Positions 3,510 through 52,847 are shown, counted from the first letter of the stretch. The stretch: 64,000 nucleotides of DNA from Minisyncoccota bacterium (GCA_035548315.1 DASZTF010000044.1:159615-223614); one strand, 5' to 3'. Program-made: numbers and translations. Notes: generated from the letters alone by a model not told the origin.

Positions 3510-3518
3510 AATAGGGAC

Positions 3519-11494: not shown

Positions 11495-11566
11495 GGCCCT
11501 ATCGTCTAACGGTTAGGACGGAGCCTTCTCAAGGCTTAAATCGGGGTTCGATTCCCCGTAGGGTCA
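11495..11566 (+). tRNA. tRNA-Glu (anticodon CUC)
   Basis: Manual cloverleaf: acceptor GGCCCTA/TAGGGTC, D-stem GTCT/GGAC, anticodon stem GAGCC/GGCTT, loop TTCTCAA, 4-nt variable loop, T-arm CGGGG-TTCGATT-CCCCG. No encoded CCA. Confidence 0.8.
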
Positions 11567-11571
11567 CATTC

Positions 11572-21306: not shown

Positions 21307-22671
21307 TTATTGTATTTCAGCTTCGACGCTACCGCCCTTCTCTTCATTCGTCGCGAGGAGTACGTCGATGCGGTTGAGGTCGCGCGGGAAGAGCGCGGCT
21401 TCTTTTACATTCGGGAGATCGAGCATCTTCATGGTGAACCGCTCAAGCCCAGTCGAGCAGCCGCCATGGGGCGGCATGCCGTATTTAAACGCCTGGAGGT
21501 AGAAGGAGAATTTGCCTGCGTCCATGCCGCGGCTCTGAATACGCTCGACCATCTCGTCGTAGTCGTGGATGCGCTGCGCGCCAGAATTGATCTCGAGTCC
21601 GCGGAACAACAGGTCGAATCCGCGCGACTCCCCAGCAGGATCGCCCATCGTGTAGAAGGCGCGTGCGGCCGTCGGGAATCTGGTGATGAACACAAAGTCC
21701 GAGTCGTGCTCCTTGCGCGCCCATTCACAAATAGCGCGCTCGTGCTCTGGAGACATGTCGTCTTCCGGCGTGACGCCGAGCGTTTTGTGCGCTTCAGCAA
21801 GCGTGAGCACGGGGAACTTCTTCCCGAGGTGTGGGACCTCGGTGCCGAAGCGCACGAACACATCTGCGTGCTTTGCCGCGACCGCGTTCACCGTATCGCG
21901 CACGACGTCTTCGAGCACGTCCATGACGTCGTGCTCATCCTTCACGAAGCCCATTTCAAAGTCCATTTGCGTGAGCTCTGAGAGGTGACGCGTCGTCGCG
22001 CTTTTCTCTGCGCGGAAGATGCGCGCGATGGTGAATGCGCGCTCCACGGCGCCGACCATGATCTGCTTGTAGAGCTGGGGCGAGGTCGCGAGGTACGCCG
22101 GTTTATCGTAGAAGTAGCCGACCTTGAATACGGCTGCGCCGCCTTCAGCATCCCCACCCACGAGCGCCGGTGCCTGGAACTCGGTAAAGCCGCGGGACGC
22201 GAGTGCAGTCCGGTACGCATTTACAATCGTGGCCTGGACCGTGAAGATGTCGCGGTCGCGCTGGCTGCGCAGCGTGTACGGGCGGTAGTCGAGGCGCGTG
22301 TCGAGGTTGAGGTCGGTGTCTTTCTCAAACGGAAGATCGCGCGCAGGAGAAATCATTTCAATACCGCGAACTTCGAGCTCGATGTCGCCGTTCTGCTTCC
22401 CTGCCTGGATATTTTTCGCCGGGCGTTCGTTTACGATGCCCTCCACTGCCACCACGTATTCGTTCTTAATTTCCTTTGCGGTCTCGAGCGCGGGTGAGCC
22501 GGGGAGCGTCACGCCCTGAACCATGCCCGAGCGATCACGGAAGTCAAAAAACACCATCTTACCCTGGTCGCGGCGGACGTCCACCCATCCCTGGATAAGG
22601 ACGGTCTTGCCAACCTTCCCCGAAAGTTCCCCAATAAGTGTGCGCTCGAGCCCTGGTTCAAAATCGTTCAT
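21307..22671 (-). CDS. aspS: Aspartyl-tRNA synthetase, archaeal/eukaryal-type class IIb (AsnRS not formally excluded)
   Basis: Anticodon-binding OB fold (LIQGWVDVRRDQGKMVFFDFRDRSG), motif 2 FRAE, motif 3 GMPPHGGCSTGLERF; 454 aa. Confidence 0.85.
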   Translation of the reverse strand: MNDFEPGLERTLIGELSGKVGKTVLIQGWVDVRRDQGKMVFFDFRDRSGMVQGVTLPGSPALETAKEIKNEYVVAVEGIVNERPAKNIQAGKQNGDIELEVRGIEMISPARDLPFEKDTDLNLDTRLDYRPYTLRSQRDRDIFTVQATIVNAYRTALASRGFTEFQAPALVGGDAEGGAAVFKVGYFYDKPAYLATSPQLYKQIMVGAVERAFTIARIFRAEKSATTRHLSELTQMDFEMGFVKDEHDVMDVLEDVVRDTVNAVAAKHADVFVRFGTEVPHLGKKFPVLTLAEAHKTLGVTPEDDMSPEHERAICEWARKEHDSDFVFITRFPTAARAFYTMGDPAGESRGFDLLFRGLEINSGAQRIHDYDEMVERIQSRGMDAGKFSFYLQAFKYGMPPHGGCSTGLERFTMKMLDLPNVKEAALFPRDLNRIDVLLATNEEKGGSVEAEIQ

Positions 22672-24628: not shown

Positions 24629-24713
24629 GGTGCGCCGGGGAGGATTCGAACCTCCGTAGGCCGAAGCCGACAGGTTTACAGCCTGTTGTAATTGACCACT
24701 CTACCACCGACGC
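24629..24713 (-). tRNA. tRNA-Tyr (anticodon GUA) with long variable arm, directly downstream of tyrS
   Basis: Reverse-strand cloverleaf: acceptor GCGTCGG/CCGGCGC, anticodon stem ACAGG/CCTGT, loop CTGTAAA, variable arm CGGCTTCGGCCTAC, T-arm GGAGG-TTCGAAT-CCTCC, then A and CC. Confidence 0.85.
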
Positions 24714-34667: not shown

Positions 34668-35939
34668 TTAGGGGGTCTCGACGGTTACGGTGATATCACC
34701 CGGGTCAGACGGGTACGAGCCCTTCCAGAATGGGCGTAGGGTAAGTACAGCCCGTCCTACCTCCGGGAAGCCGGTCAGCACAGAAAGTGCCGAAGCGCGG
34801 GACTTCCCTGCGACCGCCCCAGCGATCTTGGTCGGGTCGACCTTCCAGACTACCGTGGCATTCCCCGAGAGCGTGAAGCTAAAGCTCGAATTAGCAGCCG
34901 GCGTGGTAGACCCCGTGCCCGCGAGTGCGAGACCCGAGACATCCTTGAGGCTAATCGGTTGGCCATTGTACTGCTGCCCCACCACCTGCGTGGCGACAAT
35001 GCGCGAGATTGCATCCGCCGGGAATATCACTGCCGTGGCCGTGGCCTGTTCCTTCACGAGTACGTTGCCACTTGTGTCTCCCGCATCAGGAAGCGGGACA
35101 TAGGTCACAAAGATGCTGCCCGGAATAAGTACGTAGCCATCCGGAACTTGTGGCGCGACTTCCCCCGTCATCTGACCCGAGAGCGTGGCCTGAAGTTTCG
35201 CGTGCTCGGCATCGTCGGTGGCCTGACCGACTGACGGGCGCGTGCCCGAGAAGCCGCCGGTGAATGCTTCGGTCGACTTAGCATAGACCTGGGTAGCCTG
35301 TGGGGTACCCGAGAGGCCAGGAAGCGTGAACGAAGACGGGCCGATGTTGTACTCCTCACCTGGGGAGTCTGCATAGACGGTAACGTTCAGGGTGCCTGGG
35401 CTGACGGCGCTGCCTGCTGGGACTGTCACGGACTGATGGATGCGGAAGATAAGGCCTGCGGAAGTCTCAAAGCGTGTGTTGTTGATAAGCGGCTGCGCCT
35501 TGGACTGGGTGTTGTAGATCGTGATCGTACCCTGCGCGGCGTCGTTTGCCGTCACGGTGCTCTCTGCCGGGACGCTTTCGGAGGCGACCTTCTGCACGGT
35601 CACCAGCTGGAATGGGATGTCGCCCGTGCTTGGGGTCGCGGTGTAGGTGCCGGTCACCGTACCGGTGTTAGTCGTCGGGAATACGTCTACTTTCGCACTG
35701 CCGAAGAGCGCGAGCGCGCCCACAGCAAGAATGACCACAATAATTGCCACGATAGCAGTACCCCAGGGGAACTTACGGCGCGGGCGGATATAGAGCGGTC
35801 GCTGCGGCGGCGGAGGCGGGAAATTTCCGGAATCCTGCTGTGGCAGCATGGGATCACCCATGGGACGGCGGCGGGAGGGCGGGACGATGTCGGTGATGGT
35901 ACGCGGCATAGGTAGTAAGTTAATAGCGAATTTCCGCAA
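34668..35939 (-). CDS. Membrane-anchored Thr/Ser/Gly-rich extracytoplasmic protein, unknown function (possibly PilN/O-like partner of the upstream ATPase)
   Basis: Pro-rich cytoplasmic N-terminus, single TM helix (AIVAIIVVILAVGALALF), and a large beta-rich ectodomain; starts 5 nt after the upstream gene. Confidence 0.55.
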   Translation of the reverse strand: MRKFAINLLPMPRTITDIVPPSRRRPMGDPMLPQQDSGNFPPPPPQRPLYIRPRRKFPWGTAIVAIIVVILAVGALALFGSAKVDVFPTTNTGTVTGTYTATPSTGDIPFQLVTVQKVASESVPAESTVTANDAAQGTITIYNTQSKAQPLINNTRFETSAGLIFRIHQSVTVPAGSAVSPGTLNVTVYADSPGEEYNIGPSSFTLPGLSGTPQATQVYAKSTEAFTGGFSGTRPSVGQATDDAEHAKLQATLSGQMTGEVAPQVPDGYVLIPGSIFVTYVPLPDAGDTSGNVLVKEQATATAVIFPADAISRIVATQVVGQQYNGQPISLKDVSGLALAGTGSTTPAANSSFSFTLSGNATVVWKVDPTKIAGAVAGKSRASALSVLTGFPEVGRAVLTLRPFWKGSYPSDPGDITVTVETP

Positions 35940-35944
35940 TTATA

Positions 35945-37084
35945 TCATGCAGTGATCTCGTCAAGCGGTTTCGCGTGGAATAGCGCGAGCATCATGAGAG
36001 TCACGTCGGCCTCCGCTTCAGGCCCCACACCCACATACGGGGAGAACTGGCCGGTCGTGACGGCAGCAATCGTGAGCGGCTCGTCGGAGAGCCAGAGCTG
36101 GCGCAGTGCCGCATCGTCGAGCGCCCGGCGCAGATACTCGCGTGCGTCATCATCCGCGACAAGAAACAGTGTACGTGGAAGCGCGTACTCACTCGAAAGC
36201 TGTCTGAGCGCGGCGGCAATGCCGTTCATCCAATCGGAGCGCGTCATGGAAGTGCCTGCCGCCGCGGCGTTCTTCACCAGGTGGATACCGTGCTCGGTGG
36301 CTATGGCATCGCTCATGCGGGGCACATGCGCGTGGGTGAGGTGCCCCACGCCAAGCGGCACTGCCGTCACCGCTGAAAGGAGTCCTTGACGCACAAGCGC
36401 TATTTCAGTAGCAGCACTTGCGACGTCAAACACAATAAACTGCCGTTCGTGCGGGTAGATATCGCGGAATACGGCGAAGGCGCACGGCGCAAATGCCGTG
36501 AAGCGGATCGTATGGGCGTGGAAGGCCTTACGGAGAGCGGTGGTGATGCCGTCGGCTACCGGGCGCGGTAGCGAGCTCCCGAGCACGACAAACTCGGCGC
36601 GGCGGACCTTTTGCCCAAAGGGGTTGCTCGACTCGTAACCGTTGAGGATCGTGGATATAACTGCCTCTGCAGCAGTTACGCGGTCGCCCTCCCCTCCCGC
36701 GCTGCGCGCCACAGACTCGCGCATGAGCGCTCGGGTGACGGTGAATGGTTCCTTCTTCTCGACACGCTCGATCCGTACCGAGCTCTCTTGCCATGGGGCC
36801 GATACCGAGACGAATGCCTCCGTAATGGAAATGTGGCCGGTCGCTCGTTTCAACACCGGGATGCCACGAGTAATGAGGAGCTCGGAAAGCTCGGTGAGCG
36901 CGCGGAGCATCGCCGCAGTAAGGTCCTCGCCCTCATGAGGGCGGATGGACGTGCGTGCAGAATAATGCAGGACTGGTTTCCCTTTTATCATAGAGACATA
37001 CGCGCCGGCGACGGAGCCAGAGCTCACATCGATCAAAAGCGCCGCTGCATCAGCAGGTTTCTTAAATAACCCCAAAAGACCCAT
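35945..37084 (-). CDS. Actin-fold (ASKHA) ATPase, FtsA/PilM-like
   Basis: N-terminal phosphate-1-like motif (ALLIDVSSGSVAGAYVSM); 379 aa; translationally coupled to the downstream membrane protein. Confidence 0.45.
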   Translation of the reverse strand: MGLLGLFKKPADAAALLIDVSSGSVAGAYVSMIKGKPVLHYSARTSIRPHEGEDLTAAMLRALTELSELLITRGIPVLKRATGHISITEAFVSVSAPWQESSVRIERVEKKEPFTVTRALMRESVARSAGGEGDRVTAAEAVISTILNGYESSNPFGQKVRRAEFVVLGSSLPRPVADGITTALRKAFHAHTIRFTAFAPCAFAVFRDIYPHERQFIVFDVASAATEIALVRQGLLSAVTAVPLGVGHLTHAHVPRMSDAIATEHGIHLVKNAAAAGTSMTRSDWMNGIAAALRQLSSEYALPRTLFLVADDDAREYLRRALDDAALRQLWLSDEPLTIAAVTTGQFSPYVGVGPEAEADVTLMMLALFHAKPLDEITA

Positions 37085-37088
37085 GCAG

Positions 37089-39065
37089 TTATTCTAGCAC
37101 TGCCTTGATACGGCGGATGCCAGCGGACGATGCTTCTTCCTTAATAATTTTGAAACGCTTGCCGCCTTCTCCCAGCTCGGAAGTGTTTTTCACATGCGGG
37201 CCGCCACAGAATTCGAGCGAGAATGATTCTGCAAATTTGGGATCTTCCTGGGTGGCGTCCTTGGGACCCATCGAGTACACCGTCACGGTGTCGCCGTATT
37301 TCACGCCGAACTCGTGCTCGGCGCCGATCTGCTCTGCTTCTGCCTTTGGCATGCTGGTGACGAATACTGGGAGCGCAGCTGCGATTTGCTCGTTCACCAT
37401 GTCTTCTGCACGCTTCAGTTCTTCAGGCGTGAGTTTGCGGTCGAATGAAAAGTCGAGGCGCACACGTTCCTGGGTGATGTTGGAGCCCCGCTGGTGGACA
37501 TCATTGCCCAGAATCTTGCGAAGCGCTGCGAGCAGGAGATGGTGCGAGGTATGGTAGCGCACAGTGACTTCTGAATGGTCCGCAAGCCCGCCCTTGAACT
37601 TGCCTTCTGCTGCGGTGCGCGACTTTGCTTGGTGCTCATCCATTTCTGAGCGGAATGCGGCTGAATCAACGCTGATCCCGCGCTCCTTTGCCAGTTCCTC
37701 AGTGATCTCAAGCGGGAATCCGTAGCTCGATGCAAGGATAAACGCATGATGGCCGCTTATCGCGCCGTGCTTCGCAGCCTTCTCAAACTCCCGCATACCC
37801 TGCGCGAGCGTGCGGCGAAATTTAGCTTCCTCAGTAGTAAGCGTATTCAAAATCTGTTCACGCTTGTCGCGGAGTTCAGAATAGGTGTCTTCATACGCAG
37901 CGATCACCTTCTCCGCGAGCTGCCAGAGGGTGTTCTCGGCCACGCCGAGCTTGTCGAGATGACGAATGGCGCGGCGGATGAGGCGGCGCAAGATGTAGCC
38001 TGCTTCGGTATTAGATGGGTGGACGTCGTCGCCCGCGATAAATACCGCCGCGCGTACGTGGTCTGCGACGATGCGGAACGATTTTACATATTCAGCATCC
38101 TTGTATGACTTCCCTGTCTGACGCTCAATTTCTTGGATGGAGGTGTAGAGCGTATCGGCGAGGAATACGTCGTCGGTGTCGTTCATCGCCATCACGAGGC
38201 GCTCGAGGCCGCCGCCGAAGTCCACATTCTTCTGGCTGAGGAACGTGAACGATCCATCCGCCTGCTTGAGGTATTCCATGAACACCGAATTCGCGATCTC
38301 CACAAAGCGGCCGCAGTCGCAGTTCGGGTGGCACTCGGGGCCATACGCCGGATCATGCGGCGTGCCGAAGTCGTAGAACATCTCGGAGTCTGGACCACCG
38401 GGCTCGCCTGCTGGCATCTTGTCGGGCGTACCGGAGCGACTCCACCAGTTCTTCGCGGCGTCGTAGGCAAAGATCCGGCCACCCTGCATGCCGACTTGGT
38501 AGCCGTTCGCCTCTGAGCCAATCACCACATCTTTCGCATCGATTCCCTTCGCGGCAAAGAGTTCCTTCCAGAGCCCAATCGATTCTTCGTCTTTAGGAAT
38601 ATTGAGCGACTCATCTCCGGCGAATACGGTGACATAAAGCTTAGCCGGATCAAGACCAAGCCCAACTTCCTTGCTCGTCATGAATTCAAACACCCACGGG
38701 AGCTGCTCTTTCTTGAAGTAGTCGCCCAAGGACCAGTTGCCGAGCATCTCAAAGAACGTGAGGTGGCGGTTGTCGCCGATGTCATCGATATCGCCGGTGC
38801 GCACCGACTTCTGCGAGTCGGCGAGCCGCACCCCAGCCGGATGGGTCTGGCCGAGAAGGTATGGCACAAGTGGCTGCATGCCGCTCGATGTGAAGAGCGT
38901 AGTCGCATCGCCCTCCGGCCTCACCGGTGCGCTTGGAATAATCGCGTGCCCGCGTTCCTTATAGAAATCCAAAAATCGCTTCCTAACCTCTGCGACCGTC
39001 ATAGGCCGAAAATAGCACGAAATCACTCGCGAGACTATAATCACAGATATGAAAAAAGGAGGCAA
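37089..39065 (-). CDS. alaS: Alanyl-tRNA synthetase, short form lacking the C-Ala domain
   Basis: AlaRS catalytic N-terminus (RFLDFYKERGHAIIPSAPVRP...LFTSSGMQP...FFEMLGNWSLGDYFK) and editing-domain HxxxH/CxxxH motifs. Probable start at MTVAEVRK (39002), giving 637 aa. Confidence 0.9.
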   Translation of the reverse strand: MPPFFISVIIVSRVISCYFRPMTVAEVRKRFLDFYKERGHAIIPSAPVRPEGDATTLFTSSGMQPLVPYLLGQTHPAGVRLADSQKSVRTGDIDDIGDNRHLTFFEMLGNWSLGDYFKKEQLPWVFEFMTSKEVGLGLDPAKLYVTVFAGDESLNIPKDEESIGLWKELFAAKGIDAKDVVIGSEANGYQVGMQGGRIFAYDAAKNWWSRSGTPDKMPAGEPGGPDSEMFYDFGTPHDPAYGPECHPNCDCGRFVEIANSVFMEYLKQADGSFTFLSQKNVDFGGGLERLVMAMNDTDDVFLADTLYTSIQEIERQTGKSYKDAEYVKSFRIVADHVRAAVFIAGDDVHPSNTEAGYILRRLIRRAIRHLDKLGVAENTLWQLAEKVIAAYEDTYSELRDKREQILNTLTTEEAKFRRTLAQGMREFEKAAKHGAISGHHAFILASSYGFPLEITEELAKERGISVDSAAFRSEMDEHQAKSRTAAEGKFKGGLADHSEVTVRYHTSHHLLLAALRKILGNDVHQRGSNITQERVRLDFSFDRKLTPEELKRAEDMVNEQIAAALPVFVTSMPKAEAEQIGAEHEFGVKYGDTVTVYSMGPKDATQEDPKFAESFSLEFCGGPHVKNTSELGEGGKRFKIIKEEASSAGIRRIKAVLE

Positions 39066-42631: not shown

Positions 42632-43144
42632 CTAGAGGGTGGTCGTGAAGAGCGCGACGACCCGCTCTCCGGTCTCAAAGTCCACGTAGACGCTGTCGCT
42701 CTTCGGGTCGAATGAGCCGTCACCATTATCGCGATAGAGCACCACCGCGTAGGTCATCTGCGGTACGGTCGGGCGGAGCAAATTCACGAGCACCTGACTT
42801 GCAGGTGCGGTCACGCGCGCGGCACCGAGAATATTCCCGAGCTCGCCGCTTTTAAGCTCTGCCACTGCCACCCACACGCCGGGAGTCGGCACCTCGACGG
42901 AATCGACGAGTACCGACGATCCTGCTGCCTGGTCGTGTACCGCGACGATGCCCGTCGTGGGAGTCGCTGGTGACGCCGCTGACTGCGCGGAGGAGGTGCC
43001 CGTATCTGTCTCTGACGTGCCGGCTCCCGGAAGGCGCGCTTCAAGGAACCACGCCGAGGTCACAAGCACCCCGAGCACGAATGCGCCGAGGGCAAGGAGC
43101 CAGGGGTTCATGGGCTGGTGCGTCGTTGGGGTAGGTTCAGGCAT
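42632..43144 (-). CDS. Membrane-anchored hypothetical protein (single TM plus ectodomain)
   Basis: TM helix NPWLLALGAFVLGVLVTSAWFL. Confidence 0.5.
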   Translation of the reverse strand: MPEPTPTTHQPMNPWLLALGAFVLGVLVTSAWFLEARLPGAGTSETDTGTSSAQSAASPATPTTGIVAVHDQAAGSSVLVDSVEVPTPGVWVAVAELKSGELGNILGAARVTAPASQVLVNLLRPTVPQMTYAVVLYRDNGDGSFDPKSDSVYVDFETGERVVALFTTTL

Positions 43145-44018
43145 ACGAAAATGGTTCAGTAAGGCTTTGGGTCTCCGACAGTATAGCGCCAATTCGTTCT
43201 GCAGTAATACCTGCGGCTCGGAGCGCATCCCTGCGGCCCGTCAGCATCGCGGAGGTGACGATGCCCTGGTTGATGAGGAGTCGCTTCTCCGCATGCTTGA
43301 GGCTCGTGAGAGTAGTGATCGGGTAAATGCCGGCCGCCACGATGCGGTCGTAGAGATTCCCGGTATCGGGGAAGCTCCAGCCGAGGAGTTCCACACCCGC
43401 GCACATGGCATACGCGACCGCCTGGCTTGTGAACTTCGTATTGGTGATCAAGATACCGCGGTCGATGGGACAGTTCTGGGTTTTGGGGTCGCAATTCCAG
43501 ACATCGTCAAAGCGCGCTTTCACATAGAGCGCGGTCTTGAGGTCTGTTTTATAGAAAGCGTCGTTGTGGTATTTGAGTTCGCCTGCAATGGTCTCGACTC
43601 CTTGTGCGGTGTCTCGCGTCGCGTAGAGGTCGACTTCGTGCTCGACGCACTTCCCTTTGATAATCGTGCGGCGTGACACGTTCCATCCTTCCGCTTTGAA
43701 AAGTTCCGCGATGAAGTCTTCAAACGGGTGTCCCGAAGGACCGAACTCAAGCAGTGCACGGCGCAGTGCATACCGCGCGGCCGCGGGACGCGCTTCTCTG
43801 CGCAGCATTGCAAATGCCTTGCGGTAGATTTCTGTTGAGCTTACCTCGTACCCCACCGAGTCTGTGATGGTGCGCGCGATTCGTTCAGCGGTGTGTTCCC
43901 CCGCGCCCGCACGACGCAGTGAAAGCGTGAGCTTCCCAGGGTCAAATTGCTCGACCGAGCCGTCAGCCTTCACGATAGCGGGTCCGGTGTGAGATGCGGT
44001 CGCCGCCATGTTACTCAT
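43137..44018 (-). CDS. ATP-cone domain fused to Mrr-like (PD-(D/E)xK) restriction-endonuclease domain
   Basis: ATP-cone IVKADGSVEQFDPGKLTLSLRRAGAGEHTAERIARTI (NrdR-like); nuclease core EVDLYA ... IAGELKYH (D ... ExK). Confidence 0.6.
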   Translation of the reverse strand: MSNMAATASHTGPAIVKADGSVEQFDPGKLTLSLRRAGAGEHTAERIARTITDSVGYEVSSTEIYRKAFAMLRREARPAAARYALRRALLEFGPSGHPFEDFIAELFKAEGWNVSRRTIIKGKCVEHEVDLYATRDTAQGVETIAGELKYHNDAFYKTDLKTALYVKARFDDVWNCDPKTQNCPIDRGILITNTKFTSQAVAYAMCAGVELLGWSFPDTGNLYDRIVAAGIYPITTLTSLKHAEKRLLINQGIVTSAMLTGRRDALRAAGITAERIGAILSETQSLTEPFSYA

Positions 44019-44433
44019 CGGTAGTAGAGGCGAGTGCCCCGTTCGCATACACCACGATCTCCGCGCTCTTTGAAGCCTCTACCGAAAGGCTGAACGATTT
44101 TTCATCAAGTACGGTAAGGCAGATGCCTGTATCACGCGGCGCTCTGAGATCAATGCGTATCGTGTCGGTGGACGAAGCGTCGCCGTTCTGCGTGACCGTG
44201 GACGTCGCAGTCAAGCTCGTGCAAGGCGTCGGTACCGTCGCACTGCCTTTTATCGTGTGCAGTCCCGACTTGCTGCTATAGGTGTCGCTCAGGTGAACGT
44301 CCGTGATCGTCGCGAAGGAAGGCACGCTCGGCGCAATCGCCGTGCGAGGCGACCCCGTGATATGGAGCACGAACAGCGCGAAGGCAATAACTATAACGGC
44401 AACAAATATGCCGATGCCGATCCAGAACCTCAT
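44011..44433 (-). CDS. Membrane-anchored hypothetical protein
   Basis: TM helix IGIGIFVAVIVIAFALFVL plus a Ser/Thr-rich ectodomain; its stop overlaps the downstream gene's start. Confidence 0.5.
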   Translation of the reverse strand: MRFWIGIGIFVAVIVIAFALFVLHITGSPRTAIAPSVPSFATITDVHLSDTYSSKSGLHTIKGSATVPTPCTSLTATSTVTQNGDASSTDTIRIDLRAPRDTGICLTVLDEKSFSLSVEASKSAEIVVYANGALASTTDE

Positions 44434-45865: not shown

Positions 45866-46882
45866 TCAATCAAGGTACTTTGCGCGGTTTGCCTTGTGCT
45901 GCGCAAAGGTGACGGCATAGTGCATCTGCCCGTCGATACCAGTGAGGTAATAGAGCGCGGTCGTCGTCGCCGGGGTAACCGCCGCAAGAATGGCATTGAG
46001 CCCAGGGTTGCCGATCGGCCCAGGCGGCAGGCCCTTATTTCTATAGGTGTTGTAGGGAGAATCGATCGCGAGGTCATCAAGCGACGGACTGAACTCCGGC
46101 TTGTCTTCGATATAGCCGAACACCGCATCGACCTGCAGCGGCATTCCCTTCTGGAGTCGGTTGTAGAGGATGCCGGCGACCATGCGCTTGTCAGTGAGCG
46201 ACTTCGCTTCGTCCTCGAGTATAGAAGCCATCACGAGATCATCGGTGAGTGGCCGGTCGAACGCATCAATTTGGGGAGAAATGCTCGCGATTTGGTCGAG
46301 GAAGTTCGCGTACATCTTCACCACCACCTCATCGGGGGTGACGTCGGGGTAAAAGAAGTAGGTGTCCGGGAACAGATATCCTTCGAGCGGGAGTGCTTCG
46401 TTCAGAAATCCGTCCGCGTCAAAGCTTGGGAAGCGCGCCTTAAGCTGTCGCGCGATCTCGCGCACGGTCTCCCCTTCCCGAATCACCACCCGCTCCGCCA
46501 CGATGCCGAAGGCGCCGTCTTGCACGCGCTCTTCCACACGGAAAAGTCCCACCGGGCGCTCGAATACGTACTTGCCCGACTTCATGCCTGCGTTTGCGCC
46601 CCTGAGGCGCGCGAGCACTTCAAACAGTAGCGGCGAGCGGATGAGTCCCTCGGCCGTAAGCTGGTCGGCCACCTCCGCGAGCGTGGCCCCTTGGGGAATA
46701 GTAATGATCTCCCCTGTCGGGAATTGGGGTGCGGGATCGAGGAGTACGAACCAGCCTGCAAGTAGCACCACGGCGAGCCCAAGCGCGCCGCATACATACA
46801 CGGCCTTGAGCCGGGTGAACTGAAATTCGAGCACCGCGAATGCGAGCATTACGAACTGCTTTACCGAAGACGGCTCGTTCAT
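45866..46882 (-). CDS. mltG: Endolytic murein transglycosylase MltG (YceG-like)
   Basis: N-terminal TM helix and YceG domain (GYLFPDTYFF ... GLPPGPIGNPG). Confidence 0.9.
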   Translation of the reverse strand: MNEPSSVKQFVMLAFAVLEFQFTRLKAVYVCGALGLAVVLLAGWFVLLDPAPQFPTGEIITIPQGATLAEVADQLTAEGLIRSPLLFEVLARLRGANAGMKSGKYVFERPVGLFRVEERVQDGAFGIVAERVVIREGETVREIARQLKARFPSFDADGFLNEALPLEGYLFPDTYFFYPDVTPDEVVVKMYANFLDQIASISPQIDAFDRPLTDDLVMASILEDEAKSLTDKRMVAGILYNRLQKGMPLQVDAVFGYIEDKPEFSPSLDDLAIDSPYNTYRNKGLPPGPIGNPGLNAILAAVTPATTTALYYLTGIDGQMHYAVTFAQHKANRAKYLD

Positions 46883-48249
46883 GTCGGGAGGTTCGAAGGC
46901 GCCTCAGTCGTCGTCGACTGGATGCGTGGGAGGTTCGGTGCTGCCACCGTCGAGCTCGGGATGTGGAAGATCGACGCGAGCTCCTCGACGCTCATGATCA
47001 TCCATGGCCCGACATATGGGTACTGGAAGTACGCGCGCCGACGCGTGAACTCAAGAAGTTCGAGCATGCGGTGCCGGCGGATCCGACCGCTCCGATCTTC
47101 CCACGGATAGCTGTTGAAAGCCTCCGACCACAACTTGAGCGGGGTGAGCGACTGGCTCGCCGTGGCCCAGGGGCGGAATATCTGCGTTACGAATGCGCCG
47201 ATGTAATCGCGCACATGGCCCTCCTCCGCGACATACACAGCGCGGATGCCCACGTCGTAGGCAAGCTTGTCGGTGTTACGACCGATGGCGGCGAGCGTCT
47301 CGGTCTGGCCCTTGGTCGGGTTCGGGAATCCTTCGCTTTCGTGCTTGTTGCCCTGCGCGTCCACGTAGGTGGTTTTTTTCACCGTGCTTGCCCGGATTTT
47401 CTCGATGAGTTCTTTGCCTTCGTCCTCCCATTTCTTACCGTTCTTGTACCCGCGCGTGTAGCGGATCATAATGTGGATCCACAGCTGCTCTTTGGGGCCG
47501 AGCGAGCCCATGAATTCAATGACGTTCGCAAGCGGATCGGTCGCCTCCTCTGGTTTAGCGACGGGGATTTTATCGAGTCCAAAGTCTGTGTAGGTTTTTA
47601 TGGGGAACGGGCTCTCGGCCTTCTTCGTGATCTCGCAGCCCCACATGGTGTAGGGTGGCTCGTTCGGGTCTATCACGCGGGTGTAGTCGACGGCCTCGAC
47701 GATCTCGACGCCCGGATACTGCGAATAGAAGTACGTCTCGATGATGTGGCGGAAGCTCTGGCGCGTCCAGACGTAAAAATGCACTCGGCCGCCGAGCGAG
47801 ACGATCTCGAATGAATACCAGGGCACGCTGCGACCCTCCCAGTACTTCTTGAAAAAGGTGCCGGTACCTGGCGTGAGGTGGATGTTCGCGAAAATGGTTT
47901 CCATCGCAAGCGGTGTCTTTTTCGTATCGCGCGGCAGGCGGATTTCAAGGAGGACGGTGGGCTGACGCAAATTCCATGCGAACACGCGGGAATCTACCCA
48001 GCGCCTCCACGCGAATCGTCCAATGAGAAATGGGATCCAGACCGGCGCGACGAAAATCAGGAAGTTGAAATCGCGGAGCATCTGCCCCGGATCCATGAGT
48101 GTGAAGATGATGAGGCATGCGACAAACGGCACCACGAGGGACCACAGGGGGAATTCCACGCTGTATTTCTCGAGCAGCGTATGCAGCCAGTGCTCGATAC
48201 GATCGAGACCGGGTAGGAGCGAACCACCACCGTGTCCGCCTGATGACAT
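46879..48249 (-). CDS. Hypothetical membrane protein (two N-terminal TM helices plus a large soluble domain)
   Basis: No recognisable domain; start at MSSGGHGG (48249). Confidence 0.55.
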   Translation of the reverse strand: MSSGGHGGGSLLPGLDRIEHWLHTLLEKYSVEFPLWSLVVPFVACLIIFTLMDPGQMLRDFNFLIFVAPVWIPFLIGRFAWRRWVDSRVFAWNLRQPTVLLEIRLPRDTKKTPLAMETIFANIHLTPGTGTFFKKYWEGRSVPWYSFEIVSLGGRVHFYVWTRQSFRHIIETYFYSQYPGVEIVEAVDYTRVIDPNEPPYTMWGCEITKKAESPFPIKTYTDFGLDKIPVAKPEEATDPLANVIEFMGSLGPKEQLWIHIMIRYTRGYKNGKKWEDEGKELIEKIRASTVKKTTYVDAQGNKHESEGFPNPTKGQTETLAAIGRNTDKLAYDVGIRAVYVAEEGHVRDYIGAFVTQIFRPWATASQSLTPLKLWSEAFNSYPWEDRSGRIRRHRMLELLEFTRRRAYFQYPYVGPWMIMSVEELASIFHIPSSTVAAPNLPRIQSTTTEAPSNLPT

Positions 48250-48317
48250 ATGCAAAAAGTATAGCATTAGGAAAACCGCGCGCCCCAGAGGGGCGCGCGG
48301 TTTTCTCAATCGAGCGC

Positions 48318-49388
48318 TTACGCAGCGCTGTACGTGCCGTCCTTCGCGCGTTTGAAGTAGCGGGTGTCATTCAGGTTCACCAAAATGGTGTTGTCCTTCA
48401 CGTAGCGGACCTTTTTCACGGCAGCCATGACTTCCTCACGGGTCATCGGTCCTTCCTTTTTCAGGATGTCGCGGATCACATCGCGGACGACGCCCGGATT
48501 GTATCCCCACTCAGCGAGTGCGTAGAGGCCGCGGCCCACGAGCACAAAGCGTGGGTCCTTGATGAGTTCGTTGTGCGTCGTCGCCACGTGAGCTTTCTTC
48601 GCGAACATGCTTGAAATAGTTTTCGCAACATCTGAGAAGTGCATCGGCTTGCCGCGCTGCTTGATCACGAGGTATGCGTAGTCGCGGATGCCTTTCGTGC
48701 GGATGGTCGGCGACGCCGCGCGACCCCACTCGGAAAGCGGATTGCTGCCGATGGTCTTGCTGAGCGAGAGCCAGCGCTTCAAGATCTCTTCGTTCTTGTA
48801 TGCATCGTTCACGCTCTTGAGCTCGTCAAGGAATTTGTCGAGCAGTTCACCCTCGGGGAGGACATCACCGTCCTCCAGTGATGCGTAGAGGGAGGACAGC
48901 GCCTCGTGCACCTTCTCTGCGGTCGCGTGGTCGACGTGCCAGCGTGCATAAAAATCATCGGTCTCGCGCTCACGGAAGAACGCCGAGCCCACCACGAGGA
49001 GGAAGCGGTAGCGGTTACGGGTCTTCTCGTCCTTAGCGAGGCCAGCGAGGAGCTCATCCTCAGGGACGATGCCGCCAAGTGACTCGATATGGCTCTGGAG
49101 GCTGGCGAAGGCCGCCTCGGCATCTTTAAATGCCTTGCCCGAACGGACCGCGTCGAGGCCAGCAGACTCGATCTGGCGCACACGCTCGCGCGTGATGCTC
49201 CAGCGCTCACCGATCTCCTCAAGCGTCTCGCGCTCGGGGGACGCGCCGAGGCCAAAGCGGTAGGTCAGGACCTCGCGGGCGCGCTCAGGTACGTCGGCGA
49301 GGAGCTTTTTGACCAGGACCACAGTGTCGATTGCCGGGCCGTTTGCGGAAGCCTTCTTCTTCGGGGTTGCCTTCATGGATTTAGCCAT
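48318..49388 (-). CDS. Sigma-70 region-4 HTH protein with a C-terminal HARE-HTH-like (RpoE/delta-N-like) domain
   Basis: LTYRFGLGASPERETLEEIGERWSITRERVRQIESAGLDAVR (sigma70 region 4); C-terminal HFSDVAKTISSMF...VLVGRGLYALAEWGY (HARE-HTH-like). Confidence 0.55.
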   Translation of the reverse strand: MAKSMKATPKKKASANGPAIDTVVLVKKLLADVPERAREVLTYRFGLGASPERETLEEIGERWSITRERVRQIESAGLDAVRSGKAFKDAEAAFASLQSHIESLGGIVPEDELLAGLAKDEKTRNRYRFLLVVGSAFFRERETDDFYARWHVDHATAEKVHEALSSLYASLEDGDVLPEGELLDKFLDELKSVNDAYKNEEILKRWLSLSKTIGSNPLSEWGRAASPTIRTKGIRDYAYLVIKQRGKPMHFSDVAKTISSMFAKKAHVATTHNELIKDPRFVLVGRGLYALAEWGYNPGVVRDVIRDILKKEGPMTREEVMAAVKKVRYVKDNTILVNLNDTRYFKRAKDGTYSAA

Positions 49389-49442: not shown

Positions 49443-52400
49443 TCAACCCCCTACCAGGTTGAGTATTTTCCCGGGTACATAGACCACTCGGGCGGGGTCC
49501 TTACCCCCGAGGGCGGCCTCCACGGGGCCAAGTTTACGCGCTTCTGCGACCGCTTCTGCCTCGCCGGCATCCACCGCAAGCTGGATGTCACCGCGGCGCT
49601 TGCCGTTCACTTGCACGCCGATCGTGACGGTGTCATTCACAAGGAGCGTAGCGTCGTAGGAGGGCCACGGAGCAGCGTGGACACTGCCCTCCCCACCTGA
49701 CTTACTCCAGAGATGCTCCATAAGATGCGGCGCGAACGGTGCAGTCAAACGAATAAGGTCGGCGTAGGCATCGACCGGGATTTCCGTCAGCTCCTCGAGG
49801 TCACGCACCAAGACCATGAGTGCAGAGAGCGCGGTGTTGAATTTGAAGCGTTCTGATTCAGTAGATACCTTCGATTCTGCCCTCGCGAGCATGCGCAGCA
49901 CGTCCTCCCCAAGCACCGCAGCGCTGCGGCGTTCGTAGAGCGCGACGATGCGGTCGAGGAACTTGCGCATGGAATAGACGCCATCGAGGTTCCAGGGATA
50001 GTGACCCGGCTCGTTATAGGGGCCGATAAAGGCGAGGTACATACGCACGGCATCAGCGCCGTGTTCCTTCACGACGTCGTCCGGGTTAATCACGTTCCCC
50101 TTTGACTTAGACATCTTCGCGCCGTCGGGACCTAGGATGATGCCGCGGTTATAGCGTTCGGCGAATGGCTCATCGACCGGCACAAGCGCAAGATCGTGCA
50201 GCGCCATAGTGAAAAAGCGTGCGTAGAGCAAGTGCATCGTGGTGTGCTCGCTCCCGCCCGAGTAGCGCTCGACAGGCATCCACTTCCTGAGCATGCTTTG
50301 GTCGGAGAAGTCGTGATTATCTTTCGGATCGAGATAGCGGAGGAAGTACCAGGAGGAATCTACGAACGTATCGAGCGTGTCGTACTCCGGCGTCCAGCCT
50401 TCGCCAAAGAGTTTCGTGACGCGGTCCTTGAGTTCTTGCGAGGTCGCGAGCGGCGACGCGGCATCGCCTGTGGTGAGCGAAGTCGAACCATTCGGGGTGA
50501 AGTCCACATCGGTGGGAAGGAGCCACGGTAGGTGCTCTGCCGGGACGAGGTGCGGCTTACCTTCCGGGTCGTACACCACTGGGATCGGACAGCCCCAATA
50601 GCGCTGACGGCTCACGAGCCAATCACGGATGCGGTAGTTGGTCACGCGCTCGCCTCCTGCTGCCTTCACGATGTCCCACATCGCTTCGCGATTATCGCGG
50701 CCGCTGAATTCACCCGAGTCCATAAGTACACCGTCGCCTGTATCTGCCGCCGCCGGGCGCTCCATGCGCTCCCGTATGTATTCAATTTCTGAGTGGCGCA
50801 TTTTTTCTGCCGCAATATCGTCGAAGTCGAGCCAGAAAGCCTCGTGCTGCTGGCGTTCTTCCTCGTCAACCTCATCGCGTTCTTCATTCTCAAGATCGAA
50901 CAAAACGATCGTGTTAACGGCGATACGATTTATGCCCTTGTGAGCTGCGTAGAATTCGCTTTGTGTGTATCCAAGGGTGCGCACGTAGGTCAGGTTCTTA
51001 TAGCCCGTTTCCTCCCGTACTTCCCGCCGCGCGGCTTCTATAGCGTCTTCACCCGCATCTATGCCTCCGGTGATAAATGTCGTCCAAGGCTGCTTCTTCC
51101 ATTTGAGGCCAATGTACTTGCTTGTAGCTGGGTTCCGTACTATCACCAGCACCGCGTTCCGCTTAACGAGCTCCTTGCCCTCCTGCCACGGGTTTTCTTT
51201 ATCTATAAAATGCGGGATTACGACCGTTTTTATCGGGAGCGCGTACTTCTGCGCAAACTCAAAGTCCCGCTCGTCGTGCGCAGGTACGGCCATGACGGCA
51301 CCAGTGCCGTAGGAACCGAGCACGTAGTCGGCGACGTACACCGGAATCGCCTCGCCATTTGCGGGATTCTTAGCGAGCACCCCCTTGAGTTCAACGCCCG
51401 TCTTCTCCTTATTCTCGCTGCGTTCGCGCTCAGTCTTGCGCTTGGTCGCCTCGACGTATGCAGCCACTTCTTGCTTATTGGAAACGCTCGACAGCAGCTC
51501 GGTTACAAGTGAGTGCTCGGGCGCGAGCACCACATATGTCGCTCCGTAGAGCGTATCAGGGCGAGTCGTAAACACTTCAATCACCTTGCCACTTTCCGAG
51601 AGGAGCGCGCTCAGCACTTCCGGCTCCTGGTCGCCGTCAAAGTGCCCGTCTTGCGCCACCACACGGCGGACTGCGATGCCGCTCGCCTGCTCGATACGAT
51701 CAGCTTGCTCGCTGCTGACTGCAGGATCGTTCACATCGTGCAAGATAACGATCTCACCGACGTTCGCCTTGATGCTCCTCCAGTCGAAGTCCCATGAAAA
51801 GGTCTCCTCAAAGTTGCGCGGGTTGTCTTTAAACTCGGGATCAACAAAACCGCCAGCGAGTACCAACTTGGCAATCGGGCTCTTCAGTTGCTCCGCTACT
51901 TTCAGCGCAGTGACTGCGCCGAGGCTCCAGCCGAACAGCACCGTGTTCTCGTCGTAGTCAGCTGCTGCAAGTGCGGCGCTGACCCAGTCTTGCTCATTCG
52001 GCTTCTTGGCCTGCGGCAGTGCTGGTGTAATGACCTCTGCGCCCTGAGCCTCAAGAACCTGCTTAACCCACGGGAAGTAGCCATCGGTCGGTGAACCGCA
52101 GAATCCGTGGAGCATGACGTACTTCTTACCTGCAGCGGCGATTGGGAATCGCAACTTCGCGCCCTCCGACTTCCCGATCCAGGCGCGCTGGGCATCCTTA
52201 ATTTCCTCGCGCCAGGGGAGTGCATCGAGGTCACTGAGCAGGCGCTCCGCATACTGAGTGATCTTCATGAACCACTGGGTGAGTTTGCGCTCCTCTACTG
52301 CGGTACCGCAGCGCTCACAATGACCGTCGATCACCTGTTCGTTTGCAAGCACCGTTTTATCTTTCGGGCACCATTTCACCGCGGCCTGCTTACGCTCGGC

Positions 52401-52847
52401 GAGGCCGTGTTCGTAGAGCTTGGCGAAGAGCCACTGCGTCCAATGGTAGTACTCCGGGTCGCAGGTCACGACTTCCTTGCTCCAGTCCACTGAGGTGCCC
52501 ATGCTCTTGATCTGCTCGCGCATGCGGTCCATGTTCGCGTAGGTCCATTCGCGCGGATCGGTGCCATTCTTCATGGCGGCGTTCTCCGCCGGCAGGCCGA
52601 ATGCGTCGAACCCTATCGGGAATAGGACATTCTTCCCTTGCATGCGCTTCATGCGCGCAAAGATGTCGGTAATCGCAAATGCGTACCAGTGGCCGATGTG
52701 GAGGTCGCCGGAGGGATAGGGGAACTCGAACAGCAGGTAGTACGGATCTTTTGAAGTATCCGTGAGATCAGTGGTGTACAGGTCGAGCGCAGCCCATTTT
52801 TCTTGAGCCTGCTTCTCTATCGCCCGATGGTCATAGCGCTCTGCCAC
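49443..52847 (-). CDS. leuS: Leucyl-tRNA synthetase with two inserted accessory hydrolase modules (alpha/beta serine hydrolase and NUDIX)
   Basis: HIGH (DLHIGHWYAF), KMSKS, Zn knuckle (CERCGTAVEE), CP1 editing motifs (TTRPDT, VPAHDERDFEFA). Inserts: aa ~237-420 with HG, GWSLG (GxSxG), D, GHF; aa ~545-700 with NUDIX box GGIDAGEDAIEAARREVREETGY. Confidence 0.9.
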   Translation of the reverse strand: MAERYDHRAIEKQAQEKWAALDLYTTDLTDTSKDPYYLLFEFPYPSGDLHIGHWYAFAITDIFARMKRMQGKNVLFPIGFDAFGLPAENAAMKNGTDPREWTYANMDRMREQIKSMGTSVDWSKEVVTCDPEYYHWTQWLFAKLYEHGLAERKQAAVKWCPKDKTVLANEQVIDGHCERCGTAVEERKLTQWFMKITQYAERLLSDLDALPWREEIKDAQRAWIGKSEGAKLRFPIAAAGKKYVMLHGFCGSPTDGYFPWVKQVLEAQGAEVITPALPQAKKPNEQDWVSAALAAADYDENTVLFGWSLGAVTALKVAEQLKSPIAKLVLAGGFVDPEFKDNPRNFEETFSWDFDWRSIKANVGEIVILHDVNDPAVSSEQADRIEQASGIAVRRVVAQDGHFDGDQEPEVLSALLSESGKVIEVFTTRPDTLYGATYVVLAPEHSLVTELLSSVSNKQEVAAYVEATKRKTERERSENKEKTGVELKGVLAKNPANGEAIPVYVADYVLGSYGTGAVMAVPAHDERDFEFAQKYALPIKTVVIPHFIDKENPWQEGKELVKRNAVLVIVRNPATSKYIGLKWKKQPWTTFITGGIDAGEDAIEAARREVREETGYKNLTYVRTLGYTQSEFYAAHKGINRIAVNTIVLFDLENEERDEVDEEERQQHEAFWLDFDDIAAEKMRHSEIEYIRERMERPAAADTGDGVLMDSGEFSGRDNREAMWDIVKAAGGERVTNYRIRDWLVSRQRYWGCPIPVVYDPEGKPHLVPAEHLPWLLPTDVDFTPNGSTSLTTGDAASPLATSQELKDRVTKLFGEGWTPEYDTLDTFVDSSWYFLRYLDPKDNHDFSDQSMLRKWMPVERYSGGSEHTTMHLLYARFFTMALHDLALVPVDEPFAERYNRGIILGPDGAKMSKSKGNVINPDDVVKEHGADAVRMYLAFIGPYNEPGHYPWNLDGVYSMRKFLDRIVALYERRSAAVLGEDVLRMLARAESKVSTESERFKFNTALSALMVLVRDLEELTEIPVDAYADLIRLTAPFAPHLMEHLWSKSGGEGSVHAAPWPSYDATLLVNDTVTIGVQVNGKRRGDIQLAVDAGEAEAVAEARKLGPVEAALGGKDPARVVYVPGKILNLVGG

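Follow-up and report, generated by a model that had tools for sequence, protein, structure and literature searches.

What purpose is served by two hydrolase-like domains embedded in the editing region of a leucyl-tRNA synthetase (LeuRS)? The question is raised by an ORF at 49443..52847 on the minus strand of the 64,000-nt stretch of DNA analyzed here (the window), which starts with GTG and encodes 1134 amino acids plus a stop codon, exactly as described in the initial annotation. In that annotation, the ORF was read as a LeuRS that carries an α/β serine hydrolase and a NUDIX hydrolase in and around its editing domain. Proofreading by aminoacyl-tRNA synthetases (aaRSs) is thought to rest on a limited number of well-catalogued editing folds.

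The LeuRS core and the integrity of the ORF

The ORF scores 855.2 bits with TIGR00396 (leuS_bact; cut-off 548.4) in the NCBIfam scan, and it aligns collinearly with the Thermus thermophilus (Tt) and Escherichia coli LeuRS structures (E 5e-196). The Pfam matches are tRNA-synt_1, the editing domain of LeuRS (PF13603), NUDIX (PF00293), Ser_hydrolase (PF06821) and Anticodon_1; the first four had been anticipated. A motif scan likewise places HIGH, TTRPDT, AHDERD, KMSKS, MLHGF, GWSLG, VNDP, DGHFDG and the Nudix box where they had been reported. The N-terminal half of the catalytic (Rossmann) core (aa 1-237, 52137..52847; all features given here are on the minus strand) matches Tt LeuRS residues 2-237 and contains HIGH (aa 50-53, nt 52689-52700) and, located by motif positions and invariant columns, the Zn-knuckle region (aa 160-181, within 52137..52847). 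The core of the CP1 editing domain (aa 423-543, 51219..51581) corresponds to Tt residues 243-362 and gives 186.7 bits with PF13603, the match spanning aa 417-549; its threonine-rich motif TTRPDT (aa 427-432, nt 51552-51569) and the editing aspartate Asp525 of AHDERD (aa 523-528, nt 51264-51281) align with the equivalent Tt residues. The remainder of CP1, the second half of the catalytic core, the anticodon-binding domain (Anticodon_1) and the C-terminal tRNA-binding domain follow (aa 703-1134, 49446..50741; Tt residues 378-581 and 636-875), with KMSKS at aa 911-915 (nt 50103-50117). Thr427, Thr428, Arg429, Thr432, His524 and Asp525 are invariant across 119 homologues, as are HIGH and KMSKS.

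The leucine-specific domain before KMSKS, which most bacterial LeuRSs have but some lack, is absent: Tt residues 582-635 have no counterpart in the alignment, and a GPDG tetrapeptide (aa 906-909, nt 50121-50132) takes their place. This absence leaves the assignment to the bacterial LeuRSs unaffected, because the Mycoplasma mobile enzyme shows that the domain is dispensable. The gene sits in a housekeeping context within the window, the core is 89-95% identical to that of close relatives, and the full-length AF2 model has a pLDDT of 87.6 and a pTM of 0.76. As far as can be judged from sequence, these data show that 49443..52847 is the housekeeping LeuRS of a Paceibacteria (CPR/Patescibacteria) bacterium, with intact synthetic and CP1 editing sites.

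Since the sequence comes from a metagenome-assembled genome, and since the GC content is slightly lower over the NUDIX region (0.52-0.55 versus ~0.59), an assembly artefact, a frameshifted gene fusion or an intein-like mobile element has to be considered; the probability of any of these is negligible. The reading frame is continuous, an identical protein occurs in an independent assembly (from SRR12170511), the locus is syntenic in a close relative, and the architecture is common to many contigs of other samples. Misassembly and frameshift were rejected on these grounds, and the occurrence of both inserts in more than 25 distinct sequences of other assemblies excludes a chimeric artefact or a frameshift. 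We likewise rejected an origin from an intein or a transposon: Pfam detects no Hint or LAGLIDADG domain in the ORF, and the module junctions (FPI followed by AAAGK, and SESGK followed by VIEV) have no direct or inverted repeats. In-frame stops interrupt some metagenomic homologues (L061, L082 and L070) and at first resembled recoding or split genes; this was also rejected, as the contigs are of low quality and the interruptions are isolated TAG/TGA codons or frameshifts.

Insert 1, a YdeN/RBBP9-type serine hydrolase

Both inserts lie inside CP1, as follows from their placement in the alignment with Tt LeuRS (1h3n), and their boundaries (51582-52136 and 50742-51218) are within a few codons of those proposed initially (51588-52139 and 50748-51215). 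Insert 1 (aa 238-422, 51582..52136) is located between Tt residues 237 and 243. PF06821 matches aa 244-406 (39.2 bits versus a gathering threshold of 22, E 8.6e-10, model positions 2-157 of 172), and the earlier assignment as a YdeN/RBBP9-like α/β hydrolase is borne out by the comparison with YdeN (1uxo, E 4.8e-11) and RBBP9 (2qs9, E 1.6e-10), in which the triad residues are aligned. The motif scan identifies the oxyanion residues His247-Gly248 in MLHGF (aa 245-249, nt 52101-52115), the nucleophile Ser308 in GWSLG (aa 306-310, nt 51918-51932), the acid Asp374 in VNDP (aa 372-375, nt 51723-51734) and His402 in DGHFDG (aa 400-405, nt 51633-51650), and these align with the GHSSG, DDP and GHF motifs of RBBP9. 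The position of RBBP9 Glu108 (the amine anchor) is occupied by a proline in a gapped loop of insert 1, with acidic residues at most two positions away in all subgroups.

The family census was made by an exhaustive whole-database profile search (a word-indexed search with the isolated module gave one protein). The HG pair, the serine and the histidine are invariant in the LeuRS-embedded copies and are kept in 152-160 of 161 family modules, embedded and free; in one subgroup the acid is a glutamate instead of an aspartate. With its catalytic residues complete, insert 1 is apparently an active serine hydrolase. In Pfam it matches α/β-hydrolase families only, and no CP1, YbaK/tRNA_edit, AlaX/tRNA_SAD or DTD fold. 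If insert 1 edits, it would represent a type of editing module outside the known aaRS folds. The searchable literature yielded no aaRS editing role for PF06821, and a search on YdeN/PF06821 returned only noise.

Insert 2, a NUDIX hydrolase

Insert 2 (aa 544-702, 50742..51218) is located between Tt residues 362 and 378 and has the α/β/α sandwich fold of the NUDIX hydrolases; both inserts fold confidently in the AF2 models. PF00293 matches aa 562-691 (56 bits versus a gathering threshold of 21.1, E 5.5e-15, model positions 2-131 of 134). The textbook Nudix box noted earlier, GGIDAGEDAIEAARREVREETGY (aa 594-616, nt 51000-51068), matches every position of GX5EX7REUXEEXGU, and its key residues are kept in 115-120 of 120 homologues. 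Further conserved residues (Trp583, Trp588, His636, Lys637, Asn640, Arg641, Glu664, Trp672, His685 and Glu687) lie beyond the box and suggest a specific pocket. With respect to the substrate class, sequence profiles and fold comparison gave no decisive match: no curated NUDIX subfamily model in NCBIfam reached its cut-off, and the structural neighbours begin with the uncharacterized 2azw, followed by the Ap6A hydrolase Ndx1, the diadenosine polyphosphatase Rv2985 and DIPP/NUDT3, among others.

AraR and NrtR are also among the structural matches. Some regulators use a NUDIX domain as a ligand sensor, and CPR proteins often have lineage-specific insertions, so that both inserts could in principle be tRNA-binding or ligand-sensing surfaces, with the NUDIX domain acting as an NrtR/AraR-like nucleotide sensor and hydrolysis having been lost. 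It is very improbable that this is the case. The box is typically degenerate in NUDIX sensors, whereas both domains keep all of their catalytic residues in more than 100 sequences, despite an overall identity of only ~47% among the NUDIX modules. Insert 2 thus has a complete set of catalytic residues and is apparently an active NUDIX hydrolase, and the conservation pattern indicates that both modules are under purifying selection.

Distribution and exchange of the modules

The architecture extends to related genomes, but the two modules are distributed differently. The NUDIX insert is carried by all of the 120 closest LeuRS homologues (the best 120 matches, from Paceibacteria/Parcubacteria). 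It is also retained in the LeuRS of 42 species-representative genomes, a scan that is biased to the dominant NUDIX type because a single NUDIX module was used as query (a diverse NUDIX alignment is too variable for a pattern scan). The serine hydrolase is patchy, being present or absent as a clean indel of ~180 codons between LeuRS genes that are up to 95% identical; relative to the syntenic locus of a close relative (L001), insert 1 is a clean in-frame indel of 540 nt. Dozens of LeuRS sequences contain the hydrolase, which occupies two different sites among them. The NUDIX modules themselves differ sharply between otherwise near-identical LeuRS genes, and one NUDIX type replaces another inside clades whose cores are at least 75% identical. 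There is no correlation between core and NUDIX distances (Spearman -0.05), and the mosaics have sharp boundaries; the trees are neighbour-joining trees of the 120 best matches only, so gain, loss and recombination are not rigorously separable. The LeuRSs of relatives hold HAD, GNAT, DUF559 (endonuclease fold), second NUDIX or unidentified inserts, either at the same sites or at a third site, a loop close to the Zn knuckle, and in one of them a GNAT acetyltransferase lies beside the hydrolase. Taken together, the distribution indicates an ancestral NUDIX insert that nearly all members of this LeuRS lineage have kept, and an accessory YdeN/RBBP9-like hydrolase that has been repeatedly gained, lost or moved. 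Module insertion into LeuRS is seemingly an undescribed but widespread habit of the lineage; no paper on this architecture came up in literature searches that combined LeuRS with NUDIX, CPR or appended domains.

The patchy presence, the replacement of NUDIX types, the uncorrelated distances and the sharp boundaries resemble the pattern of conflict systems. The modules might accordingly be defence or detoxification cassettes that shield LeuRS from “Trojan horse” aminoacyl-adenylate mimics (of the agrocin-84, microcin-C or aminoacyl-sulfamoyl-adenosine types) by hydrolysis or acetylation, or that repair toxin-modified tRNA 3' ends. The GNAT domain next to the hydrolase fits this proposal, as does the existence of an NCBIfam model for GNAT-containing IleRS (NF040702), and among the known immunity enzymes against microcin C, MccF is a serine peptidase and MccE a GNAT. 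However, the NUDIX module is present in almost the whole lineage instead of sporadically, the window has no defence or toxin genes near leuS, and we know of no inhibitor or toxin for these organisms. Homologous recombination over the highly conserved flanks also explains the exchange without selection, and we consider a defence function quite improbable.

Linkage of the hydrolase to leuS

The same pattern of exchange can be read in a simpler way, in which the two CP1 loops and the loop near the Zn knuckle are merely permissive and tolerate small enzymes of general housekeeping (nucleotide sanitation, a generic esterase) that are mechanistically unconnected to leucylation or editing, the fusion providing only coexpression with an essential gene. 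The unrelated domains found at the same sites, the clean gain or loss of the hydrolase between near-identical genes and the failure of the NUDIX module to fit a subfamily agree with such a reading, and so does the occurrence of the hydrolase module in a UvrA-like protein and an M1 aminopeptidase. It is nevertheless rather unlikely in view of the hosts and neighbours of the hydrolase, and of the retention of the NUDIX module throughout the nearest homologues and the species-representative genomes. Among the 150 best matches of the whole-database profile search, LeuRS outnumbers every other host by ~60 to 1; of the other hosts, ValRS, AlaRS and the M1 aminopeptidase all handle aminoacyl groups. 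Moreover, free-standing copies lie directly upstream of leuS in all four informative loci, because of which the link between hydrolase and LeuRS looks functional. In three of these (L048, L054 and L057), the free hydrolase is 7-37 nt upstream on the same strand. In the fourth (L056), the operon consists of two hydrolases, a YbaK-like deacylase, a Ham1-like NTP pyrophosphatase and an archaeal-type LeuRS, and it reproduces from separate genes the putative set of esterase, nucleotide pyrophosphatase and LeuRS that is seen in the window.

Proposed function

The enzyme is a housekeeping LeuRS with two autonomous hydrolase domains in loops on the surface of CP1. Our preferred reading, to which we give an even chance, is that both would work as cis clean-up enzymes for LeuRS chemistry. 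The Ser308-Asp374-His402 triad would hydrolyse an α-aminoacyl (thio)ester with a free α-amine, most likely the ester at the 3' end of a mischarged tRNA(Leu) on which CP1 acts poorly; homocysteine thiolactone (made by editing aaRSs) or a non-cognate aminoacyl-adenylate are alternative substrates. Insert 1 would then probably serve as extra proofreading or as by-product detoxification. Such a specificity has parallels in the family: as an aminopeptidase, RBBP9 hydrolyses aminoacyl amides and needs a free α-amine (PMC8866121), and, according to the account of Shenoy 2020 given in PMC7730578, it activates the valyl-nucleoside ester valacyclovir. The NUDIX metal site (Glu609, Glu612 and Glu613) would cleave a nucleoside-diphosphate-X compound, the likeliest being a dinucleoside polyphosphate (Ap3A-Ap6A) formed from the aminoacyl-adenylate and a nucleotide, or else another non-canonical nucleotide; its probable role is the removal of by-products of the nucleotide-pyrophosphate kind, ApnA among them. 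Tethering to the mobile CP1 domain would keep both enzymes beside the source of the by-products. The observation made in the initial annotation is confirmed, and its interpretation is partly supported; the functions of the modules are what we infer.

A broader proposal is tentative and somewhat unlikely to hold. It states that the YdeN-like hydrolase is a hitherto unrecognized, LeuRS-dedicated and fold-distinct factor for aminoacyl-ester proofreading or by-product clearing, repeatedly recruited in trans (to bacterial- and archaeal-type LeuRS) or in cis at two sites, and that together with exchangeable cassettes for nucleotide pyrophosphatase or phosphatase activity (NUDIX, Ham1 and HAD) it makes the CP1 of CPR LeuRSs a modular quality-control platform.

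An intact NUDIX domain embedded in CP1 and the repeated recruitment of one serine hydrolase family point to unstudied accessory chemistry around leucylation, for which a second ester-hydrolysing site, the detoxification of homocysteine thiolactone and the local removal of dinucleoside polyphosphates are candidates. The protein offers ready-made constructs for testing the cis clearance of aaRS side-products, and the CP1 loops found to accept whole domains can be used in engineering. The data also document cassette-like domain exchange inside an essential gene of genome-reduced CPR bacteria, and for the YdeN/RBBP9 family, which is poorly understood, the linkage to leuS suggests a class of physiological substrates.

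Comparison with known systems

The domain order, the HIGH and KMSKS motifs, the Zn knuckle, CP1, the anticodon-binding domain and the C-terminal domain are shared with canonical bacterial LeuRSs (T. thermophilus, 1h3n/2byt; E. coli, 4aq7). In contrast to these, foreign catalytic domains of ~185 and 159 residues are added here and the leucine-specific domain is missing. In M. mobile LeuRS this domain is replaced by a GKDG linker (PMC3643597), a Gly-x-Asp-Gly tetrapeptide like the GPDG found here; the M. mobile enzyme also lacks CP1, whereas the present enzyme keeps and enlarges it.

YdeN of Bacillus subtilis (1uxo) and human RBBP9 (2qs9/7oex) have the same minimal α/β-hydrolase of ~180 residues and align with insert 1 over the full length, sharing the triad and the HG pair. 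They are, however, free-standing, have no known link to an aaRS and are only ~25-30% identical to insert 1, and Glu108 of RBBP9 is not clearly conserved. BPHL, a valacyclovirase and homocysteine thiolactonase, is a serine α/β hydrolase whose specificity is for free-amine (thio)esters of α-amino acids, one of them a by-product of aaRS editing (PMC4198189). It may be a functional analogue of insert 1 by chemistry, not by membership, as it belongs to another α/β-hydrolase family and gives a marginal local match (E ~1).

The NUDIX (di)nucleoside-polyphosphate hydrolases Ndx1 (T. thermophilus, 1vc8), Rv2985 (Mycobacterium tuberculosis, 9cxx) and DIPP/NUDT3, together with 2azw of Enterococcus faecalis, are 16-21% identical to insert 2, which differs from them in being embedded in another enzyme and in having its own conserved residues beyond the box. 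Precedents for accessory domains, hydrolytic or modifying, that act with aaRSs, fused or neighbouring, are YbaK/ProX (tRNA_edit), AlaX/tRNA_SAD, DTD and the GNAT domain of IleRS, and a YbaK-like gene shares the L056 operon with the hydrolase and LeuRS. The fold of insert 1, that of an α/β serine hydrolase, differs from the folds of these trans-editing and appended editing modules.

Domain organization of the LeuRS

The leuS ORF (49443-52847, minus strand) has the length of 1134 aa given in the initial annotation, and each motif named there is found at the position quoted for it. It starts with GTG and is uninterrupted. NCBIfam assigns the product to TIGR00396 (bacterial leucyl-tRNA synthetase) with 855 bits against a cut-off of 548. 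Pfam detects the catalytic domain of class I enzymes, the editing domain of LeuRS at aa 417-549 and an anticodon-binding domain, together with the two extra domains that had been predicted, NUDIX (aa 562-691, 56 bits) and Ser_hydrolase (PF06821, aa 244-406, 39 bits), both above their gathering thresholds. The HIGH and KMSKS motifs, T427/T428/T432 and D525 are invariant in 119 aligned homologues.

The alignment with Thermus thermophilus LeuRS (Tt, 1h3n) is collinear in four blocks (3-237 with Tt 2-237, 423-543 with Tt 243-362, 703-908 with Tt 378-581 and 910-1132 with Tt 636-875), which places both inserts within CP1 and shows that the leucine-specific domain is missing. Insert 1 (aa 238-422, site 1) is in the first beta-hairpin of CP1, immediately N-terminal to the TTRPDT strand, and insert 2 (aa 544-702, site 2) is in the CP1 surface loop between the editing Asp and the GxLxNSGxF segment. 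In place of the leucine-specific domain stands GPDG (aa 906-909; 50121-50132, minus strand), as located from this alignment and the motif positions. The AlphaFold2 model of the whole LeuRS has a mean pLDDT of 87.6 and a pTM of 0.76, with pLDDT values of 90-97 for the NUDIX module and of 61-93 for the hydrolase, where the alignment is shallow; when folded alone, the NUDIX module reaches a pLDDT of 93 and a pTM of 0.87.

Authenticity and genomic context

The window LeuRS is a real housekeeping enzyme. An identical protein is present at NCBI on a 279-kb contig of a Candidatus Paceibacterota MAG, and the same protein was assembled independently from run SRR12170511. An assembly artefact, such as the chimeric misassembly considered in the initial annotation, or an intein is excluded by the continuous ORF, the independent assembly, the Pfam scan and a repeat search at the module junctions. 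The neighbourhood of leuS consists of ordinary chromosomal housekeeping genes (MltG, YchF, ATP synthase, DnaK, DnaB, MnmA, AlaRS and Asp/AsnRS), and on L001, a syntenic JGI contig, the encoded LeuRS is 89% identical in the core.

No inserts were found by the domain scan in the other aaRSs of the window, AlaRS and an Asp/Asn-type aaRS; the insertions are therefore specific to LeuRS in this genome, at least within the window. The AlaRS (37089-39065, minus strand) is short (658 aa), stopping at the tRNA_SAD domain without a C-terminal domain, and the Asp/Asn-type enzyme (21307-22671, minus strand) has 454 aa and no inserted modules. Directly adjoining leuS on its downstream side is a gene (48318-49388, minus strand) whose 356-aa product has Sigma-70 region 4 and HARE-HTH domains; this gene is also beside leuS in L001 and in a second homologous locus, L002. 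The window has only two tRNA genes, tRNA-Glu(CTC) (11495-11567, plus strand) and tRNA-Tyr(GTA) (24629-24713, minus strand), and thus no tRNA-Leu near leuS. A 303-aa protein (43137-44048, minus strand) has an unusual pairing of an ATP-cone with an Mrr-type restriction-endonuclease catalytic domain, suggesting a nucleotide-regulated nuclease. At E 1e-3 or better, Pfam gives no match for several large ORFs (476, 586, 423 and 379 aa); the Pfam-negative large ORFs, which include 46879-48309, 2541-4301 and 34668-37084 (all minus strand), are typical of CPR genomes.

Catalytic residues of the inserted modules

All positions of the Nudix box GX5EX7REUXEEXGU are matched. G594, E609, E612 and E613 do not vary in 120 homologues, 115 of which have E600 and R608, and outside the box W583, W588, H636, K637, N640, R641, E664, W672, H685 and E687 are invariant or nearly so, in a module whose mean identity among homologues is only about 47%. 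YdeN (E 5e-11) and RBBP9 (E 1.6e-10) match the hydrolase along its whole length, and GWSLG, VNDP and GHF of the hydrolase face GHSSG, TDDP and GHF of RBBP9. The HG motif, Ser and His of the hydrolase are invariant in the LeuRS-embedded copies and kept in 152-160 of the 161 family members. Judged by these residues, both modules appear to be catalytically intact, and a non-catalytic role of the modules conflicts with this conservation of their active sites.

Distribution and probable exchange of the modules

The NUDIX insert is lineage-wide. The ortholog search finds it in all 120 best LeuRS homologues, most of which are proteins of 940-970 aa with NUDIX alone, and a scan of species-representative genomes finds 42 NUDIX-LeuRS loci. 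Those with a lineage in their record belong to Kaiser-, Taylor-, Zambryski- or Vogelbacteria, Paceibacterota or Minisyncoccia; some labels given by submitters are generic or wrong. Distances in NUDIX do not correlate with those in the core (Spearman -0.05), and one clade, in which core identity is 75% or higher, has up to five NUDIX types that are at most 40% identical. Between the homologues P0001 and P0003, the identity drops from 90-96% to 50-60% exactly over aa ~535-700, and at the DNA level from 80-90% to 48-66%. The NUDIX module thus has a history separate from that of the core, and because its identity is bimodal among close pairs, the data suggest discrete replacement and not uniformly fast drift.

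The distribution of the hydrolase is patchy. In the LeuRS-core tree (like the module tree, a simple neighbour-joining tree on a biased sample) its carriers are scattered, and every carrier has a close relative without the module; for example, P0006 has the hydrolase and P0052 lacks it, at an identity of 95% for the core and 99% for NUDIX. The window module is a clean in-frame indel of 540 nt when compared with L001. A metagenome scan, whose counts are biased because its pattern was derived from embedded copies, gives 40 confirmed hydrolase loci, of which 33 of the 35 analysed sit within LeuRS ORFs, and 9 of 29 complete hydrolase-LeuRS ORFs also have a Nudix box. The exact two-insert architecture of the window therefore recurs elsewhere.

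Other LeuRS have the hydrolase at site 1 without NUDIX, or have it close to the second Zn knuckle (query aa 759-768), a third site. Further arrangements are NUDIX and hydrolase in tandem, two hydrolases in tandem, NUDIX at site 1, and inserts without an assigned family. A HAD_2-type phosphatase module (FIFDFDGV motif) is at site 3, C-terminal to the second Zn knuckle, in loci L025 and L034 and at site 2 in protein P0068, hence at different sites in different lineages. In L020 (Candidatus Vogelbacteria MAG), a DUF559 restriction-endonuclease-fold domain (119 bits) occupies the same CP1 loop, site 1, as the serine hydrolase of the window, and the downstream editing domain looks shortened; this insert could hint at how modules become inserted. 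P0249 (1318 aa) has a GNAT acetyltransferase and the serine hydrolase in tandem at site 1 and, like P0165 (1163 aa), an extra insert of 130-150 aa with no family identified near the C-terminal/anticodon-binding region. The GNAT variant and the cassette-like turnover would agree with a defence against adenylate-mimic inhibitors, but this reading is unlikely.

Linkage of the hydrolase with leuS

An exhaustive hydrolase profile search of 1.84 billion representatives gives 4804 matches, 160 of them at E < 1e-30. Among the best 150 of the 4804, about 60 are LeuRS hosts and about 87 are free-standing proteins of ~180 aa, and ValRS, AlaRS, M1 aminopeptidase and a UvrA-like protein occur once each. 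In the module tree, free copies are interspersed among embedded ones. The non-LeuRS proteins with the same hydrolase sub-family embedded are P0178 (L051:3001-6783), P0181, P0235 and P0227, the hosts being a 1260-aa ValRS, an AlaRS with the module between its catalytic and editing domains, an M1 aminopeptidase and a UvrA-like ATPase. The genomic context was inspected for five free-standing hydrolases. Three of them are directly upstream of leuS: P0126 at a distance of 7 nt, on 11 contigs, from an insert-free LeuRS of 809 aa, P0138 at 37 nt from a LeuRS of 801 aa, and P0141 at 25 nt from a NUDIX-LeuRS of 957 aa. P0142 opens an operon (L056:4001-8549) that continues with a second YdeN-like hydrolase, a YbaK-like deacylase and a Ham1/RdgB-like NTP pyrophosphatase and includes a LeuRS of archaeal type (leuS_arch, 750 bits); HTH genes on the same contig look archaeal. 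P0136 is on a short, uninformative contig.

The fusion at two sites and the conserved adjacency to leuS argue for a functional partnership of hydrolase and LeuRS, and not for random insertion. In the strongest alternative, the modules are passengers tolerated in permissive LeuRS loops, which accounts for the range of different modules and for the UvrA-like host, but leaves unexplained the ~60:1 excess of LeuRS hosts among the best 150 of 4804 matches, the leuS adjacency and the universality of NUDIX.

Proposed function of the serine hydrolase

To our knowledge, RBBP9 is the only PF06821 enzyme that has been characterised. RBBP9 removes N-terminal residues, with a strict requirement for a free alpha-amine (PMC8866121), and is described as activating valacyclovir, in which a nucleoside analogue is esterified with valine (Shenoy 2020, via PMC7730578). 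The shared substrate feature would be an aminoacyl (thio)ester whose amine is free. The LeuRS products having this feature would be the aminoacyl-tRNA 3' end, the aminoacyl-adenylate and homocysteine thiolactone, which is generated by editing class I aaRSs. Because the feature matches these three products, the favoured possibility is that the serine hydrolase would act as an aminoacyl-ester hydrolase that supplements CP1; thiolactone detoxification would be the main alternative function.

Comparison with known systems

In the literature searched, itself an incomplete set, no LeuRS was found described whose inserts are NUDIX or alpha/beta-hydrolase domains. Databases annotate the homologues as nothing more than 'leucyl-tRNA synthetase' or 'class I tRNA ligase family protein', if not as 'alpha/beta fold hydrolase'. 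The family is known, the architecture is new and lineage-wide, and the association of the hydrolase with leuS appears to be unreported. The replacement of the leucine-specific domain is analogous to that in the LeuRS of M. mobile, which has a functional GKDG linker at the spot where the window LeuRS has GPDG (PMC3643597).
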